64,000 nucleotides of DNA from an uncultured Chloroflexia bacterium (GTDB lineage: Bacteria > Chloroflexota > Dehalococcoidia > DSTF01 > JALHUB01): contig OY969814.1 in assembly GCA_963703345.1 (NCBI GenBank), positions 896,001 to 960,000 on the forward strand, read 5' to 3'. Under the pieces are notes generated by a model that was not told the DNA's origin, made no database searches, and saw only the letters and a program-made list of their open reading frames with translations. The position numbers and the translations under genes were made by a program. This document shows, one piece after another, positions 54,181-61,427 of this stretch (within the stretch, counting starts at the first letter, position 1; each line of letters opens with the position of its first letter).

Positions 54181-54276
54181 GATACGCCGAGTCCGCTGCG
54201 CCTAACATGACTGAGGGTGTATTATCTGCCGGAGGCGGCGCCTCAGACTCGTATCGCCATCGAGGAGGAAATCGCA

Positions 54277-55752
54277 TTGCGGATAAAGACCGGACTAGTC
54301 GTCCCGATTCTCGCGCTTCTTGCCCTCTTCCTTCCCGGCTGCATGTGGGGCGTCGTCCGCGACGCCGGTACTGGTGTCGGCATCGAGGGCGCGACGGTAT
54401 CGTACACCGATTCGCAAGGCAACACGGGCTCGACGACGAGCACGACCTTCGGCCTCTACCTCCTCAACGCTTCGACGGGCTTCCCGGTAATCGGGTCGTC
54501 GCAGTTCGACGTCAGCGCTCCCGGTTACTCGACGCTCACAACTACCCGATCCGTCCTCTACGACGACAACCCCAACGCCACGCTGGCCGACCTGTCGAGC
54601 TTCTGGGAAGTGCAGTCCTTCGATCTCAATGTGGGAAACGGGGCGGGAATCATCAATAGTCTCGCCAGCGGCCTTCATTTCCCGGTCGGCGCCGTATATG
54701 ACAGCCATGGCAACCTCTACTTCAGCGAACGCGACACTTGCAGCGTGCGCAGGATAGGCGCCAGCAGCGGCAGGATCACGACCGTCGCCGGCGACGGGAC
54801 CTGCGGCTTCTCCGGCGACGGCGGTCCCGCGACTGACGCCGAACTGGCCGACCCCAGCGGCCTCGCCATCGCGCCCAACGGCGATATCGCCATCGCCGAC
54901 ACCACCAACTGCCGTGTGCGTCGGGTCAACATGGCCACGGGCACTATTAGCACGGTCGCCGGCAACGGTACCTGCGGCTTCAGCGGCGACGGCGGCGACG
55001 TCACGCTCGCCCAGATCGCGCTTTCCGCTGCCGCCGTTCCCAGCTTGTTCGTCTGGTCGGACGTCGCCTTCGATTCCGGCGGCAACCTTTACATCGCCGA
55101 TATCTTCAACTGCCGCATCCGCGAAGTTGCGGGCGGCACGATCTCGACGATCGCCGGCTCGGGTGCCACGGGTTTCACTTGCGGCGCCTTCTCCGGCGAC
55201 GGCGGCCCGGCCACCAGCGCCCGCCTCGACCAGCCAAGCGGCGTCGCCGTCAACGCCGACGGCGACGTGTTCATCGGCGAGCTGGGCGGCTGCCGGGTGC
55301 GCAAGGTCTTGCATAATCGCGCCCACATGATTCAGACGATTGCCGGCGGCGCCATTTGCGCGTCGTCGGGTGACGGCGGTCCTGCAGCGGATGCCGGCCT
55401 CGCCAACGTCCGCGGCCTTGCCCTCGACGCTGCGGACAACGTCTACATCTCCCAATTCCGCTTCAACACCAGCGACCCAACGCAAATGCTCGACTGCGAA
55501 GTGCGCAAGATCGACGAGAATGACGGAAAAATCAGGCGTGTCGCGGGCAACGGCGCCTGCGGCGCCAGCGGCGATGGCGGCGCGGCGATAACGGCGCAGA
55601 TCAACGTGCCGGGCGACGTCGCGCTGGCCTGCAACGGCGACGTCGCCTTCACCGACGCGCTGGATGGCCGCGTCCGCGTGGTGAAGGACGTCAACGACGG
55701 TGGCCCGGCGCCTGACGCCGACGGCAACGGCACCGGCGACATCTGCGAATAG
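54277..55752 (+). CDS. NHL-repeat (teneurin-like beta-propeller) lipoprotein
   Basis: TTG start after GAGGAGG; lipobox LPGC; repeated TVAGxGTCGFSGDGGPA..L..P.G.A and IAD..NCRVR; C-terminal DADGNG. Confidence 0.82.
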   Translation: MRIKTGLVVPILALLALFLPGCMWGVVRDAGTGVGIEGATVSYTDSQGNTGSTTSTTFGLYLLNASTGFPVIGSSQFDVSAPGYSTLTTTRSVLYDDNPNATLADLSSFWEVQSFDLNVGNGAGIINSLASGLHFPVGAVYDSHGNLYFSERDTCSVRRIGASSGRITTVAGDGTCGFSGDGGPATDAELADPSGLAIAPNGDIAIADTTNCRVRRVNMATGTISTVAGNGTCGFSGDGGDVTLAQIALSAAAVPSLFVWSDVAFDSGGNLYIADIFNCRIREVAGGTISTIAGSGATGFTCGAFSGDGGPATSARLDQPSGVAVNADGDVFIGELGGCRVRKVLHNRAHMIQTIAGGAICASSGDGGPAADAGLANVRGLALDAADNVYISQFRFNTSDPTQMLDCEVRKIDENDGKIRRVAGNGACGASGDGGAAITAQINVPGDVALACNGDVAFTDALDGRVRVVKDVNDGGPAPDADGNGTGDICE

Positions 55753-55780
55753 GCTTTCCTTGTCCTGTCCCCCGACCCCT

Positions 55781-55809
55781 TTGCCTCCTTCGGGCTTCGA
55801 TGCTAAGAT
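55781..55809 (+). promoter_or_regulatory. Putative sigma70 promoter of the uORF-DCCP operon
   Basis: TTGCCT-N17-TAAGAT with an extended TG; implies a leader of about 355 nt. Confidence 0.5.
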
Positions 55810-55919
55810 GAGCGCACGTCAGAGCGATTCGAGGACAAGCGTTGCCTCTATTGACTGCCTCCGACGACATGACAAACGTCGCTCTAACCCCGCAACGGAT
55901 AGGGAAGGGGGTGAAGCCA

Positions 55920-56024
55920 ATGACCTCATTGCGCGGCTTCACCTGAGTCTGCCCGGACGTGGCACAGGTTCTGCGCCCGTCATCGCTCACGCCGCACCCT
56001 GTCCGTAGGCCTCACTCCCGCTAA
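55920..56024 (+). CDS. Candidate 34-aa selenocysteine-containing leader peptide MTSLRGFTUVCPDVAQVLRPSSLTPHPVRRPHSR
   Basis: SD AAGGGGGTGA, ATG 55920, in-frame TGA 55944-55946 in a U-x-C context, SECIS-like hairpin, TAA 56022-56024. Confidence 0.55.
55956..55981 (+). promoter_or_regulatory. Candidate bacterial SECIS element of the leader ORF
   Basis: GACG(U bulge)GGC-A-CAG[GUU]CUG-C-GCC-CGUC; 21 nt between TGA and loop; CAGGUUCUG resembles the E. coli fdhF SECIS apex CAGGUCUG. Confidence 0.55.
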
Positions 56025-56170
56025 CCTCCCGCTTCCCAGGGTCGGTCGAGCCACTTAGCGAGACAGCCTGCTCTCACTGGGTTGAGCGCTGCTGTCCAGC
56101 GCGGCACTGTCACGCTCCGGCAAGAACGCCATCCATCCGCTTCCAGCATTCGCTATTAAGGAGGATTATC

Positions 56171-57445
56171 GTGGTCGATTATCGAGAAATGTGGTCGGGT
56201 CTCGGCCTTAACCTGCAAAGGCACGATGAGCTGCTCGCCGGCCTCTCGGCCATGTACGGCGAGATGTTCCTCAGTCAGCGCGCGCGTCCCAAGGCCATGG
56301 ACTACTTCGACTTCGTCGTCAGTGAGATACACGGCCTGAGAGTGAAAGAGCTGGTGGACTATCGCGCGGCCGGCGGCAAGGTCGTCGGGCTCTACTGCGT
56401 GTTCGTCCCGGAGGATGTTGTGCTGGCCGCGAGCGCCGTGCCCATCGGCCTGTGCGCGGGTGCCCAATTCGCCGTCCCCGACGCGGAGGAAGTCCTGCCC
56501 CGCAACAGTTGCCCGCTCGTCAAGTCGTCCTTCGGCTTCAAAGTGAACCGGACCTGCCCTTACATCCAGGCCAGCGACTTCGTCGTCGGGGAGACGACCT
56601 GCGACGGCAAGAAGAAGATGTATGAGTTGCTTTCCGAGCTGCATCCCATGCACGTCATGGAGGTGCCGCAGAAGAAGACGGCGTTCGGCCGCGCGCTCTT
56701 CCTCGATGAGCTGAAGGCGTTCGTGCTTCGGCTGGAGGAAGAGACGGGCCGAAAGATCACCGCCGAGGGACTCGCGAAGGCTACGAGTGTCACCGAGGGC
56801 AAACGCCGCGCCCTGAAGCGCCTACAGGCCGTCCGAAAGGCCCGCCCGGCACCCATCAGCGGCCTCGACGCCCTGCTTATCACCCAGATCGCTTTCTACG
56901 ATGACAATGTTCGCTTCACCGAGAAGGTCAACGTCCTCTGCGACGAGCTGGAGGCCCGCGTCGCTGCGGGAGAGGGCGTGGCGCCGGCGAACGCGCCGCG
57001 CATCCTCGCGAGCGGCAGCCCGATGGCCGTGCCCAACTGGAAGCTCCACCACATCCTGGAGCAGAGCGGCGCCGTCGTCGTCGGCGAGGAGTCATGCACC
57101 GGAACGCGCTACTTCGATCGCCTGACGCCTTCCCACGACGGCACGCTCGACGGTCAGCTTGCGGCCATCGCGGACCGACAGCTCGACGTCCACTGCGCCT
57201 GCTTCACGCCCAACAGCGAGCGGCTGGATGACATCGTCAACCTGGCGCGCGGGTGGTCGGCCGACAGCGTGGTGCACTACGCGCTCCAGTTCTGCCACAC
57301 CTTCGCCAACGAAGCGGTGAAGGTGGAGCGGCGACTGGCGTCGGAAGGAATCCCGCTCCTGCGCATCGAGACCGACTACAGCGACGAGGATATCGGCCCG
57401 CTTCAGACGCGGGTGGACGCGTTCCTGGAGATGATCCGGAGGTGA
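56171..57445 (+). CDS. Double-cubane cluster-containing anaerobic reductase (DCCP; 2-hydroxyacyl-CoA dehydratase-like fold)
   Basis: YREMW..L.L..HD N-terminus, RPKAMDYFDFVVSEIHGLRVKEL, YCVFVPE, GLCAG, RNSCPL, GETTCDGKKK, EESCTG, HCACF, QFCH. Confidence 0.88.
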   Translation: MVDYREMWSGLGLNLQRHDELLAGLSAMYGEMFLSQRARPKAMDYFDFVVSEIHGLRVKELVDYRAAGGKVVGLYCVFVPEDVVLAASAVPIGLCAGAQFAVPDAEEVLPRNSCPLVKSSFGFKVNRTCPYIQASDFVVGETTCDGKKKMYELLSELHPMHVMEVPQKKTAFGRALFLDELKAFVLRLEEETGRKITAEGLAKATSVTEGKRRALKRLQAVRKARPAPISGLDALLITQIAFYDDNVRFTEKVNVLCDELEARVAAGEGVAPANAPRILASGSPMAVPNWKLHHILEQSGAVVVGEESCTGTRYFDRLTPSHDGTLDGQLAAIADRQLDVHCACFTPNSERLDDIVNLARGWSADSVVHYALQFCHTFANEAVKVERRLASEGIPLLRIETDYSDEDIGPLQTRVDAFLEMIRR

Positions 57446-58203
57446 CTTACGCAGGGCTGGACATCGGGTCGCGCACGATCGTCCTGACCGAGCTGACGGG
57501 CGGATCGGTACGCTCGCGCATCATCGACACGGGTCCCGACCCGTTGGAGCGCTGTCGCCGCCTGCTGGACGGCGCGAGCTATCGTCGCCTTGTCGCCACC
57601 GGCTACGGGCGTCATCTCGCAAAAGGGGTCCTCGCCGATTCCGCTGTCTCTGAGATCACCGCTTATGCCGTCGGCGCGCGTCACCTGTACGCCGACTGCC
57701 ATGCGGTGGTCGACGTCGGCGGCCAGGACTGCAAGGTCGCGCTCATGGCGAGCGACGGGACGGTGCAGAAATTCGAGATGAACGACCGCTGCGCCGCCGG
57801 CACGGGCCGCTTCCTTGAGGTGATGGCGCGGGCGCTGGACGTGGACATCGCTTCCCTCGGCGGGCTGGCGCTCGGAGCCACGACGAAGGTTGCGATAAGC
57901 AGCCTCTGCACCGTCTTCGCCGAGTCGGAAGTCGTCTCCCTCATCGCCCGTGGCGAGGACAGCGCCGCGATTGCCCTCGGGCTGCACGAGTCTATCGCCC
58001 AACGAATCGGCGGCATGTGCCGAAGGGTTGGGATAAGGGACCGAGTCATTTTCGCCGGCGGGGGCGCGCTGAACGTGTGCCTGCGGGAGCTGCTGGGACG
58101 CAGGCTCGGCGTCGAGCTGACCGTGCCGGACGAGCCGCAGGCGGTCGGAGCGCTGGGGGCGGCCCTAATCGCTAAGGCGCAGGACGGCCGGGAAGGCGGC
58201 TGA
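57442..58203 (+). CDS. ATP-dependent [4Fe-4S] activator (DCCP reductase / HgdC-BadF ASKHA family)
   Basis: GLDIGSRT, TGYGR, DVGGQD, MNDRCAAGTGRFLE, SSLCTVFAESE; GTGA coupling. Confidence 0.92.
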   Translation: MTYAGLDIGSRTIVLTELTGGSVRSRIIDTGPDPLERCRRLLDGASYRRLVATGYGRHLAKGVLADSAVSEITAYAVGARHLYADCHAVVDVGGQDCKVALMASDGTVQKFEMNDRCAAGTGRFLEVMARALDVDIASLGGLALGATTKVAISSLCTVFAESEVVSLIARGEDSAAIALGLHESIAQRIGGMCRRVGIRDRVIFAGGGALNVCLRELLGRRLGVELTVPDEPQAVGALGAALIAKAQDGREGG

Positions 58204-58205
58204 AC

Positions 58206-58487
58206 TCAGGACCGGGCGACACCGGCCTCGGAGAGCAGGACTCGCGCCTTGTCCGTGAGCTGCCAGATGGTCGGGCCGGACGCTTCGTCGCAGGCTGGTG
58301 TGCGCATCGAGCAGCGGGCGCAGACGCTCGACGCCGCGCGGGAGGCGCAGCTCAGGTAGCCCTCGCTGCCGAGTCGCGCCAGCAGGTCGCCGACCAGCGG
58401 CGACGGGACGTTCAGTTCGCGTGCCAGCGTCTCGCTGGACCACGTCCGGTCGCCGTCGGCAAGGAGCGCGAGCAATCGCTTGAGCAT
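58206..58487 (-). CDS. feoC: FeoC-like winged-helix protein
   Basis: LARELNVPSPLVGDLLARL..EGYL plus C..CARC..C; directly downstream of feoB. Confidence 0.7.
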   Translation of the reverse strand: MLKRLLALLADGDRTWSSETLARELNVPSPLVGDLLARLGSEGYLSCASRAASSVCARCSMRTPACDEASGPTIWQLTDKARVLLSEAGVARS

Positions 58488-58489
58488 CG

Positions 58490-60493
58490 TCAGACTCCCA
58501 GGCCGAAAAGGCGCGCCGTCTGGTAGATCGCTATCGCGACGCCGAACGACACGACGAGCATGTAGCCCACCGCGAAGCCCGTCCAACGCCAGCTTCGCGT
58601 CTCACGGTAGAGCGTCACGGTGGACGCGGCGCAAGGGATGAACAGCATCTGCAGGGCGATGAAGGCCAGCGCCGCGGCCGGCGTCATGATGCCGGTCAGC
58701 GAAGTGCGCAGCGCGGAGTCGCCGTTGGCGCCGAGGAGGACGCCGAAGGTGGCGATGGTCTGCTCCTTGGCGACGAAGCTGGTGAGCAGGGCGACCATCG
58801 CCCGCCAGTCCAGCCCCATCATGCCGCCGATCGGCGCCAACCCCCGCCCGATGTGGCCGAGGAAGCTCGCCTCGATGCCGCTGCCGGGGAAGGTGGCAAG
58901 CGCCCACACGACCAGCGACACGGCGAGGATGACGGTGCCGGTCAGCGTAACGAAATGGCGCAGCCGCGTCAGCGTCGTCAGTAGGACGGAGCGCAAGTCG
59001 GGGACGTGATAGCGTGGCAGCTCCATGACGAACGACGACTCGCGTCCTCGAAACAGGAGCCGGCTTATGAGCAGCGCGACAACAGCGAGCACCGCGAGAT
59101 TGACCATCACCATGCCCCAGGCGACGAACGCCGCCGCGCTGCCGAAGAAGGCCGCGGTGAACAGAGCGATCACAACCATGCGCGCCGAGCAGGGCACCAG
59201 CGGCGCGACGAGGATCGTCGTCAGGCGGGCGCTCGGCGATTCGACGATGCGACTGCCGGTGATGGCCGGCACGTTGCATCCCCAGCCCACGAACAGTGGC
59301 AGGAATGACTTGCCGCGCAGGCCGATGAGGTTCATGAACCGGTCCATGACGAACGCGGCCCGCGCCATGTAGCCGACGTCCTCCAGAATGGTCAAGGCGA
59401 AGAAGAGGAGCGCCAGGATAGGAAGAAAGGTGAGCACGGTGCCCACACCGCCGATGACGCCGTCGCTAAGAAGGCTCACGCTCCAGTGCGGCCAGCCAGC
59501 AAGGAGGCTTTGCACTCTCGTTGCGCTCCCGCCCACCAGTTTGTCGTCCAGGAAGCGCTGCATCGGCACTGCGACGCTGAACATCAGCCAGTAGACGCCG
59601 AAGACCACGCCGACGAACGCCAGCACACCGCCGAGCGGATGCATCAGCAGGTGGTCGGCGCGCTTTGCCCAGGACGGCTCGCCCTTCTCGCGGCGCACGG
59701 CCTGATGGTAGACGGCGGCGGCCCAATCATAGCGGGCGCCGGCAATCTCTATCGCCGCGCCGTCGCGATGCCGGAGCACGTCTTCTATACGAAGCCGGAC
59801 GTCGGCCGAGGTCTCGGCTTTGACCGCCTCCGCCAGCGCGCGGTCGCCTTCGAGGAGCTTGACGAGCAACCAGTCGCGCGGATAGGGCAGGCTGAGAGCA
59901 GCGGGAAGGGTCTGGTCGAGGGCGTCGAGAAGGCCTTCCGTGTCGGGCTCCAGCGGCGGGTGAGCGACGGCTGGCGACGCTCCCGCTTCCGCAACGCGCT
60001 CGACGGCTTCGATAAGTTCCGAGATGCCCTTCCCCTGCCTGGCGACCAGCGGGACAACCGGCACAGCCAGCACCGACTCCAGCCGCTCGACGTCGACGCT
60101 GAGGCCGGCCGCCTGCGCGACGTCCATCATATTCAGGGCGATGACGGTGGGAAGGCCCAGCTCCAGGAGCTCGCGGACAAGGTAGAGGTTGCGCTCCAGG
60201 CTCGCAGCGTCAACAACGGCAACCACGACGTCGGGTCTCTCCATCGCCAGGAAATCGCGCGCGGTCTTCTCTTCGACCGAGTTGGCGGACAGGCTGTAGC
60301 TGCCCGGCAGGTCGATGAGCGAAAAGACGGTTCCATTGCGCCGGTGGACGCCGGTCTTTTTCTCTACCGTCTTCCCCGGCCAGTTCCCCGTGTGCTGTCT
60401 GAGGCCTGTCAGGGCGTTGAAGACCGTGCTCTTGCCGGTGTTGGGCGCGCCAGCAAGCGCCACGGTCAGCGTAGAGACCGGCCTGGCGATCAT
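58490..60493 (-). CDS. feoB: Ferrous iron transporter B
   Basis: GAPNTGKS, GNWPGKTVE, DLPGSY, NMMD, GYMARAAF, GCNVPA, PCSAR, FVAKE. Confidence 0.96.
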   Translation of the reverse strand: MIARPVSTLTVALAGAPNTGKSTVFNALTGLRQHTGNWPGKTVEKKTGVHRRNGTVFSLIDLPGSYSLSANSVEEKTARDFLAMERPDVVVAVVDAASLERNLYLVRELLELGLPTVIALNMMDVAQAAGLSVDVERLESVLAVPVVPLVARQGKGISELIEAVERVAEAGASPAVAHPPLEPDTEGLLDALDQTLPAALSLPYPRDWLLVKLLEGDRALAEAVKAETSADVRLRIEDVLRHRDGAAIEIAGARYDWAAAVYHQAVRREKGEPSWAKRADHLLMHPLGGVLAFVGVVFGVYWLMFSVAVPMQRFLDDKLVGGSATRVQSLLAGWPHWSVSLLSDGVIGGVGTVLTFLPILALLFFALTILEDVGYMARAAFVMDRFMNLIGLRGKSFLPLFVGWGCNVPAITGSRIVESPSARLTTILVAPLVPCSARMVVIALFTAAFFGSAAAFVAWGMVMVNLAVLAVVALLISRLLFRGRESSFVMELPRYHVPDLRSVLLTTLTRLRHFVTLTGTVILAVSLVVWALATFPGSGIEASFLGHIGRGLAPIGGMMGLDWRAMVALLTSFVAKEQTIATFGVLLGANGDSALRTSLTGIMTPAAALAFIALQMLFIPCAASTVTLYRETRSWRWTGFAVGYMLVVSFGVAIAIYQTARLFGLGV

Positions 60494-60744
60494 GTTCCCG
60501 ATTCCGATGCCGCTACTGTCAGCCGCATCGATTCGGCGCGACCAAGCGCCAGGCGCACGCCCCGGATCACAACGACCACGGGGCCGCGGCCGGCGTTCCG
60601 TTCCATCTCGATCCTGGTGCCCGGGATGCAGCCGAGCGCCAGACAACGCGCCGTGAACGTCCTTCCGCCCGAAAGACCGACGATCGTCCCCGTTTCGCCC
60701 GGCTTCAGCGATCCCACCGGCATTACGGTTTCAGCCGCTTTCAC
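60490..60744 (-). CDS. feoA: Ferrous iron transport protein A
   Basis: LKPGETGTIV..RCLALGCIPGTRI..GPVVV.IRG.RLALGR. Confidence 0.88.
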   Translation of the reverse strand: MKAAETVMPVGSLKPGETGTIVGLSGGRTFTARCLALGCIPGTRIEMERNAGRGPVVVVIRGVRLALGRAESMRLTVAASESGT

Positions 60745-61427
60745 TGTGTTGCTCCCAGGTTGGCCGTCGCGTCCGGCAGGCGTTCCACCATAACGCTTCC
60801 TGCCAGGTCGCTGGCCACTTCTTTCAGCTTGCCGTCGACGCGCACCCACACGGAGCCGTCCTCGGCGCTTACGCCTTCGACTTCGACGATGCGGTCGGGC
60901 CGCACGTCCAGGCGGGCGAGGCGTCGCAGGAACTCCGGCGTCTCGTCGTAGATGCGTACGATGCGCGCCGTCCCCGCCGGCTCGAAGCGGCTGAGCGGTA
61001 GGATCTGCGTCGAACTAACATCGTGCTTGCGGCCGGGTATCGCGTGGCCATGCGGGCAGGACGCCAGGTCGCCCAGGAAGTCGACGAGACGTTCCTCAAG
61101 CGCCGGTGACGTGGCGTGCTCCAGCCGGCCCGCTTCGTCGTGAACTTCATCCCAGGAAAAGCCGAGGAAGCGGACGAGGAAGCTCTCCCACAGGCGATGC
61201 CGCCGGATGAGCGAGTTGGCGAGCCGCTGCCCTTCGGGCGTGAGCCGGACCGGACGGCGCGGCACGTGCTCGATCAGTCCTCTGGCGGAGAGCCGTTGCA
61301 GCATCTGCGTTATCGACGGCATGGAGAGGCCAAGCCGCGCCGCCAGGTAGGAGGTGGTGACCTCATCGCCGTGCTCGGCGGCCAGGCCGATTATCTTGAG
61401 GTATTCCTCTGGTCGTTCTTCAATCAT
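60741..61427 (-). CDS. DtxR/MntR-family metal-dependent repressor with a C-terminal FeoA domain
   Basis: EEYLK, SMPSITQML, RRHRLWESFL, EAGRLEH, CPHGHAIP. Confidence 0.93.
   Translation of the reverse strand: MIEERPEEYLKIIGLAAEHGDEVTTSYLAARLGLSMPSITQMLQRLSARGLIEHVPRRPVRLTPEGQRLANSLIRRHRLWESFLVRFLGFSWDEVHDEAGRLEHATSPALEERLVDFLGDLASCPHGHAIPGRKHDVSSTQILPLSRFEPAGTARIVRIYDETPEFLRRLARLDVRPDRIVEVEGVSAEDGSVWVRVDGKLKEVASDLAGSVMVERLPDATANLGATQ

Follow-up and report, generated by a model that had tools for sequence, protein, structure and literature searches.

Transcription attenuators of the trpL/hisL type follow a 1:2/2:3/3:4 helix logic: a short upstream open reading frame (uORF) carries a sensing codon, the position of the ribosome picks the protector, the antiterminator or the terminator, and supply genes are ON when the charged tRNA is short. 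Among the described leader attenuators, hisL is a listed case (PMC12360218, Table 2). The leader analysed here precedes the gene of a double-cubane-cluster protein (DCCP) in a window of 64,000 nucleotides (nt) from an uncultured Chloroflexia bacterium (assembly GCA_963703345.1, contig OY969814.1, positions 896,001 to 960,000; genome G000, 2.28 Mb, 96% complete). It resembles the trpL/hisL type in its short uORF with a sensing codon and in the predicted response, namely ON when selenocysteinyl-tRNA (Sec-tRNA) is scarce. It differs in that the sensing codon would be a recoded stop, UGA, which needs SelB and a selenocysteine insertion sequence (SECIS), failure ending in termination by release factor 2 (RF2) and not in a plain stall, and in that the 5' strand of the protector is the uORF's own ribosome-binding site (RBS) and start, while the window holds no intrinsic terminator.

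Other described systems share parts of this arrangement. The Rho-dependent attenuators tnaC and speFL (PMC12360218) also have a uORF, a ribosome held at a stop codon, a C-rich leader and rho; they stall by a nascent peptide plus a ligand in the exit tunnel and mask the Rho utilization site directly, whereas the peptide of the Sec leader is not conserved and it is base skew that points to Rho. The SECIS-like element in the 5' untranslated region of Escherichia coli selAB, as described in PMC13449736, reports SelB-GTP-Sec-tRNA, as the leader SECIS would, and represses when Sec is plentiful; that hairpin lies 3 nt from the Shine-Dalgarno (SD) sequence and acts by binding, whereas in the window some 180 nt separate hairpin and SD, and the hairpin comes after an in-frame UGA within a uORF that looks translated. 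Selenoprotein SECIS elements (selD of G000; the E. coli fdhF type, PMC7026636) are likewise hairpins right after an in-frame UGA with a small G-led loop, but the leader hairpin lies in a 34-codon leader without a conserved protein product. HrsM of Methanococcus (PMC11097638) and the LysR_Sec_metab family (NF040786) have the same physiological job and overlapping targets (yedE, tusA/tusD-like genes and probably DCCP), although these are proteins, not RNA and ribosome, and LysR appears at DCCP loci without the leader. The work on HrsM calls selenium sensing by cells an open question (PMC11097638), and the leader offers a concrete cis-acting candidate.

The conserved leader ORF with its UGA and SECIS-type hairpin is best explained as a ribosome-driven attenuator that would sense Sec-tRNA and turn the DCCP operon ON when Sec is scarce, a reading to which we assign a probability of roughly 0.6. 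The leader is real, and is probably leader-peptide attenuation with a new input, the Sec codon. A first-pass annotation of the same DNA had already proposed that a leader ORF with a Sec codon reports the supply of Sec-tRNA and SelB to the DCCP operon through competing helices; this core idea is well supported by the comparative data, whereas the direction of the response is predicted to be the opposite of the one proposed. The annotation knew of no described attenuator of this kind, and a full-text literature search, with most subscription papers outside its reach, likewise found none; the accessible parts of PMC3428693 and PMC8124441 contain nothing on such leaders. The following elements are referred to throughout, all of them on the + strand.

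55781-55809, +: promoter-like sequence, chosen by eye, with a putative -35 box TTGCCT (55781-55786), a 17-nt spacer and a putative extended -10 box TG-n-TAAGAT (55804-55809)
55895-55925, +: segment 1, holding the uORF RBS (SD-like sequence AAGGGGGTGA, 55905-55914), the start codon (ATG at 55920) and flanking sequence; forms the 5' side of the predicted helix 1:2
55920-56024, +: leader ORF MTSLRGFT-U-VCPDVAQVLRPSSLTPHPVRRPHSR, with 8 codons, UGA, 25 codons and TAA (56022-56024); homologous uORFs occur in relatives
55944-55946, +: UGA, a predicted site of Sec insertion or RF2 termination; the same in every row of alignments A4 and A5, with selA, selB and tRNA-Sec in the genome
55956-55981, +: SECIS-type hairpin, assigned by fold, covariation and likeness to the genome's SelD SECIS; loop GUU at 55968-55970
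55979-56006, +: segment 2, the switch strand 3' of the SECIS; predicted to pair with segment 1 when no ribosome is bound and with segment 3 when one is at the UGA
56007-56036, +: C-rich loop that surrounds the uORF stop and is poorly conserved; putative loading site for Rho; contains the anti-SD of the first-pass annotation
56037-56054, +: segment 3, which does not vary within the genus; predicted to form helix 2:3 with segment 2
56160-56164, +: SD GGAGG of the DCCP gene
56171-57445, +: DCCP, 424 amino acids, GTG start (NF040772, 473.7 bits against a cut-off of 350)
57442-58203, +: ATP-dependent activase (DCCP-R type; TIGR00241 at 210 bits, cut-off 125), whose start overlaps the DCCP stop

The leader elements listed by the first-pass annotation, with all four of its complementary pairs, were each recovered in place. 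Hexamers like the promoter-like boxes of the window align in the genomes G007 and G008, and TTGACT-N17 boxes lie 5' of the leaders in G011 and G021; a consensus scan of 55700-56250 for promoters and terminators gave no site.

Conserved leader architecture and the selenocysteine machinery

The order SD, start codon, 7-10 codons, UGA and hairpin is found in all 45 parsed leaders (30 from genomes, this one included, and 15 non-redundant ones from metagenomes), which stand before DCCP, yedE, yedF/tusD-like and ArsP-type genes. When any further UGA in the three codons that follow the sensing UGA is treated as read through, an in-frame stop falls 66-108 nt after the UGA in 44 of the 45, compared with 5/45 and 9/45 in the other two frames. 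Because this conserved open frame ends just past segment 2, read-through is taken to be the signal. These leaders have the first attribute of an attenuator, i.e. a short uORF with its own RBS and a conserved sensing codon upstream of an operon.

The first-pass annotation had suggested looking for the arrangement, and for covariation, in the leaders of DCCP orthologues. Both were found: a close DCCP orthologue is present in 4 of 60 relatives and the SD-ATG-8 to 10 codons-TGA-hairpin arrangement precedes it in all four; the leader is also present in 16 of 27 further DCCP loci of the class. The SECIS stem is 94.7% paired and shows 13 two-sided cells, a count reached in 0 of 500 shuffles and against 0-2 in slid controls, with similar figures on the 45-row alignment; such counts are inflated by the relatedness of the leaders. 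As judged from these alignments, conservation extends to RNA structure and to the span that is translated, not to the peptide.

Taken from a single sequence, the motif is not beyond chance. G000 contains 446 sites of the form SD-ATG-4 to 12 codons-TGA, 67 of which pass a loose hairpin filter that the window's leader itself fails. The hairpin 55956-55981 (-13.8 kcal/mol, z -1.81) is equalled by 10 of 200 shuffles, the folding of the 57 nt from the UGA is unremarkable against shuffles (z 0.22), and Rfam 15 gave no match in the window at the gathering score, nor in 55700-56250 at E up to 5. The motif is judged real because it is conserved, not because of single-sequence statistics.

The hairpin after the UGA folds with the bulged U and the CAG-GUU-CUG top given by the first-pass annotation, and also contains an A.C mismatch. 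Its first loop G is at position 25 counted from the U of the UGA, compared with 37 in SelD and in long leaders, and the Sec-compatible distance from UGA to loop is 16-37 nt. G000 carries selA, selB and tRNA-Sec, so that the absence of sel genes, which the annotation had named as grounds for dropping its proposal, does not apply. The hairpin covaries, its loop begins with G and is spaced suitably for Sec insertion from an in-frame UGA, and the genome carries selA, selB and selC; the hairpin has the marks of a bacterial SECIS and is a probable one. Across the leader genomes tested, selA is found in 25/25 (against 96/151 genomes of the class) and tRNA-Sec was detected in 24/25.

A scan of G000 found 58 sites where a TGA precedes a CAG-G..-CTG hairpin, this leader being one and a Sec-SelD (identified by sequence, no HMM) another; the SECIS of this SelD is near-identical to that of the leader and likewise encodes AQVLRP. 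The 5' ends of selD in G000 (minus strand, UGA at 800123) and in locus L153 consist of U plus 9 codons to AQVLRP, with a SECIS and spacing much like those of the leader. Given this resemblance, the sensor may derive from a selD start. Homologues of yedE, yedF and ArsP-type genes were not found by tblastn in G000, in a search that recovered the DCCP control.

Competing helices and the predicted direction of response

The consensus fold contains helix 1:2, in which the sequence 3' of the SECIS pairs with the RBS and start codon of the uORF. This duplex beats at least 95% of shuffles in 38/45 leaders; in the window 8 of 200 shuffles are as good, or 32 of 300 with a shorter partner. The domain 55895-56006 folds as the first-pass annotation claimed (z -2.97, 1/200 shuffles). 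The local helix that it drew between the uORF SD and codons 6-8 exists in the window (13/300 shuffles) but beats shuffles in only 5/45 leaders. With no ribosome, 55895-55904:55997-56006 acts as helix 1:2, with about 10 base pairs (bp) in 6/6 boundary choices; with a ribosome at the UGA, 55985-56001 pairs with 56037-56051 (helix 2:3) in 5/6 boundary choices here and in 6/6 each in G007 and G008. The 2:3 duplex is worth about -20 kcal/mol (z -2.24), and segment 3 is invariant in 3/3 genus leaders while the loop between segments 2 and 3 diverges. Folding thus predicts mutually exclusive, conserved helices that overlap the uORF (1:2 versus 2:3), as in an attenuator.

The direction of the response is read from relatives. 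In the leaders of 20 of them, a hairpin with a U-tract stands before the gene, its arms set by hand (an automatic finder found 12/21), and since segment 3 there is the 5' arm of this intrinsic terminator, helix 2:3 is the antiterminator. In 14/20 of these leaders, the duplex between this 5' arm and the switch strand 3' of the SECIS outscores at least 95% of shuffles, and the pairing sequences differ from leader to leader. In transcripts cut before the terminator 3' arm, a ribosome placed at the UGA leaves the antiterminator with 1.6-12 bp, and a ribosome reading through leaves it with 0-5 bp; the read-through state blocks segment 2 by construction, so that its low value is partly built in. The first-pass annotation had the operon ON with selenium; because the antiterminator of the homologous leaders is predicted to form with the ribosome at the UGA, ON in Sec shortage is expected instead.

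The proposed mechanism would run as follows. With no ribosome, segment 1 (the uORF RBS and start) would pair with segment 2, and the operon would be OFF. When Sec-tRNA or SelB is lacking, one ribosome after another would load and get no further than codon 9, pausing or terminating there; segment 1 would be kept occupied and segment 2 never crossed, leaving segment 2 to pair with segment 3, which is the ON state. When Sec-tRNA is present, the ribosome would read through, strip segment 2 and halt just beyond, giving OFF. In the terminator-bearing relatives this would amount to a 1:2/2:3/3:4 switch of the trp type. Failed Sec insertion is followed by RF2 termination, and SECIS-bound SelB-Sec-tRNA excludes RF2 (PMC4513850; PMC7026636). 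Since RF2 ends translation, ON in starvation would need only repeated loading on segment 1 and no crossing of segment 2.

External support for this direction comes from Methanococcus maripaludis, where on selenium depletion yedE goes up 39-42-fold, tusA/tusD 22-24-fold and an HgdB-annotated gene (MMJJ_07100), possibly a DCCP, 57-fold (PMC11097638). In the class, 5 of 11 DCCP loci without a clear leader, and in addition L026, have a divergent LysR gene whose best hit is LysR_Sec_metab (NF040786), with three matches over the cut-off and the others below it, two of these cut by the locus end. The loci with a divergent LysR 5' of DCCP and without the leader are L106, L107, L108, L109, L116 and L026; LysR_Sec_metab has no match in G000. 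This distribution suggests that RNA and protein regulators of selenium metabolism may substitute for each other.

The output step and alternative explanations

Neither the scan nor folding gave an intrinsic terminator before the DCCP gene of the window, and this attribute of an attenuator is lacking here. The C-over-G skew after segment 2 is 0.16-0.41 in terminator-less leaders (n = 23) and -0.19 to 0.16 in those with a terminator (n = 20; L050 and L104 omitted), a comparison for which the interval was picked after looking and which is confounded by lineage; for the leader in the window the skew is 0.23, at the 93rd percentile of genome windows. The rho gene is present in G000 and in 25/27 leader genomes. 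A rho gene together with a C-rich, G-poor stretch is what a Rho attenuator requires, which is a weak criterion. With C-rich terminator-less leaders and rho present, Rho-dependent termination is favoured: judging from base skew, Rho most likely terminates transcription in this genus where helix 2:3 closes off the C-rich stretch, or else the output is an effect on the RBS that equilibrium folding does not bring out. In the high-GC leaders L168 and L169, a terminator-like hairpin about 130-180 nt past the UGA has its U-tract shortened or lost, possibly a transition from intrinsic to Rho-dependent output. In L150 (1630-1850), tandem short palindromic repeats are inserted between antiterminator and terminator, with the pairing still kept.

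At the DCCP RBS, a shift of 2.6-2.9 kcal/mol was obtained in three genus leaders under one boundary set (span 200) and was absent under others, and a translational switch at this site was not robust in four tests.

A number of results, beyond the hand-set arms, the constructed read-through state and the post hoc skew interval mentioned above, weigh against the proposed Sec-tRNA attenuator or its direction. The association with selA is confounded, as 11/12 further DCCP genomes also have selA. Since the window has no terminator, its direction is borrowed from homologous leaders. Folding of G007 and G008 yields helix 2:3 with or without a ribosome, and 8/20 terminator leaders have a strong antiterminator (>7 bp) before any ribosome is placed on them. 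At full-length equilibrium terminators mostly form in every state and do not discriminate between states, so that the switch must be kinetic. Across 21 terminator-less leaders, RBS opening shows no consistent shift between states; segment 3 pairs with the DCCP start no better than with random coding windows (83, 23 and 26 of 246); and L104 and L161 fold in the opposite direction. RF2 ends translation on failed insertion (PMC4513850), which leaves a long dwell at the UGA in starvation in question, and slow Sec insertion could instead pause the ribosome when selenium is present, reversing the direction.

The last possibility leads to the alternative in which the same Sec-sensing uORF acts in reverse in this genus, read-through to the TAA or a pause during slow Sec insertion freeing the DCCP RBS. 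The first-pass annotation had proposed a version of it, in which read-through covers an anti-SD. The complementarity between UAACCUCC and GGAGG-A-UUA is indeed present and overlaps the uORF stop. Its energies in the four leaders of the genus are -9.1, -7.8, -7.8 and -5.1 kcal/mol, and at one place both sides differ together, UAA:UUA in the window being UAG:CUA in G007 and L192. In L104 a clear anti-SD hairpin lies 5 nt past the uORF stop, and placing a ribosome at that stop lowers the SD opening energy from 7.2 to 1.9 kcal/mol. Furthermore, 955 of 970 DCCPs occur in SelD genomes and DCCP may need selenium (bioRxiv 10.1101/2022.07.06.499078), and SECIS-bound SelB-Sec-tRNA blocks RF2 (PMC4513850). 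However, the anti-SD helix is barely populated, with at most 2.4 expected bp under 72 folding conditions in the four genus leaders, and the pairing is weak or absent (-4.2 kcal/mol or weaker) in the 17 other terminator-less leaders; the terminator-bearing homologues of the DCCP leader predict OFF on read-through, and the co-regulated gene types go up on selenium depletion in Methanococcus (PMC11097638). We regard the reverse direction as unlikely.

An element of the E. coli selAB type, in which SelB-GTP-Sec-tRNA would bind the hairpin and alter folding or termination with no translation of the uORF, is less probable still, at something like an outside chance. Such SelB control is described for E. 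coli selAB (PMC13449736), and the 3' foot of the SECIS overlaps the switch strand, where binding could shift helix 1:2. It would leave without a role what is conserved here, namely the SD-like sequence, the in-frame start 7-10 codons before the UGA, the UGA itself and the open frame to a stop just past segment 2. Nor does the leader have the selAB layout, a hairpin that abuts the SD and no uORF, its hairpin being about 180 nt from the DCCP SD as against 3 nt.

The first-pass annotation had offered a stand-alone UxC selenopeptide as an alternative, and a small selenopeptide (U-x-C or U-x-U) co-transcribed with DCCP as the functional product would find some encouragement in codon +2 after the UGA, which is a second UGA in 22/45 leaders and Cys in 4/45, and in the Thr at residue -1 in 38/45. 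The U-x-C motif is present in the window but, with Cys in so few leaders, is not general, and 19/45 have neither U nor C at +2. Thr is encoded by ACC in 33/45, and this codon may instead reflect pairing with the uORF SD, though that helix, as noted, rarely beats shuffles. The selenopeptide is disfavoured because the same nucleotides after the UGA are read in different frames in different genomes (QVLRQSS in some leaders versus GAGSASVICS in others), and we consider it very improbable. Since peptide and frame vary, the leader also lacks the conserved arrest peptide of the tnaC type.

A functionless relic of a duplicated selD 5' end, or chance, would account for the near-identity of the hairpin to the SelD SECIS, for the weak scores that the leader model gives to selD starts and for loose UGA-hairpin matches being common, but the leader is conserved in many families, in front of selenium genes unrelated to one another, its long-range helices covary, it is coupled to terminators and its read-through length is fixed, which leaves a relic or chance scarcely credible.

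Distribution of the leader and the DCCP operon

To judge from the closest named DCCP hit, L026, the class is probably Dehalococcoidia. In the class sample, DCCP is above the cut-off in 31 of 401 genomes. The 27 new class-level DCCP loci comprise 16 with the leader, 10 without and a doubtful variant, L129 (1243-1360), with MLLQT-UGA and a hairpin, where the read-through frame would overlap the DCCP start, a possible case of translational coupling. A metagenome search used a pattern made of the SECIS top and the next 6 bases only, which contains neither the UGA nor a start codon; its 28 hits are 25 leaders (23 with the full SD-start-UGA order, 2 cut by contig ends) and 3 chance matches (L189-L191). 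The genes 3' of these leaders are DCCP, yedE (3) and TusD-like (1).

A sequence-only model built on 19 leaders found matches before a YedF-like gene, two ArsP/SaoE-like permeases and a YedE/FdhT-like gene, and one match before DCCP outside the class (L197); G000 itself has a single leader by this model. Within the window's own family, leaders were found before yedE in L161, with yedF next, and in L162, where yedE was recognised by sequence. These two (L161:192-410 and L162:1520-1737) form a second subtype, with FQRRT-UGA and another SECIS, helix 1:2 built from a different sequence and no terminator. A second, slightly different copy of the leader is present in G007 at a contig end (L156, G007:C133:6082-6184). 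In other phyla, 79 of 80 named DCCP loci were inspected (L062, with its 5' end missing, was omitted) and by eye only two are similar, the leader-like elements before DCCP in records of Ca. Eisenbacteria and Syntrophales (L104:2315-2491 and L050:2250-2497, respectively); model R1 (45/47 sources matched) does not score them. Among the remaining model hits, the weakly scoring selD starts L142, L153 and L200 were dropped, as was the partial match L155; L139, L160 and L167 (translated) are antisense matches in a conserved gene, L154 is an identical sequence, and L140, L141, L143, L152, L165, L199 and L201-L204 are coding or unrelated.

Taken at its broadest, the comparison may point to a widespread, undescribed class of attenuators in which the ribosome would test Sec recoding on a dummy UGA and SECIS, with one sensor module, outputs through an intrinsic terminator, Rho or RBS sequestration, and replacement of the selenium LysR. 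Its targets would make up a selenium-starvation regulon that includes the orphan DCCP, pointing to a selenium-scavenging enzyme. We give this wider reading about an even chance. With DCCP under the same control as yedE, yedF/tusA and ArsP-type transporters, a role in selenium acquisition becomes testable. A genetically encoded sensor of Sec-tRNA would also be a useful tool.

DCCP is an 8Fe-9S enzyme whose natural substrate is unknown and whose link to selenium has so far been only phylogenetic (bioRxiv 10.1101/2022.07.06.499078). For the protein encoded in the window, both the family profile above its cut-off and the adjacent activase indicate membership; its seven Cys (76, 95, 114, 144, 309, 342 and 375) show the expected pattern with a spacing near but not equal to the published motif (X18 and X164 instead of X19 and X166-170).

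Directly 5' of the leader lies a gene for a secreted-looking NHL-repeat protein (54217-55752, +), which is not kept 5' of DCCP in G007 and G008. Convergent to the DCCP-activase pair, 58206-61427 on the - strand holds a DtxR/MntR-like regulator, feoA, feoB and a small ORF that has no family match and is FeoC-like by eye; feoB-like sequence is also present downstream in G007 and G008.

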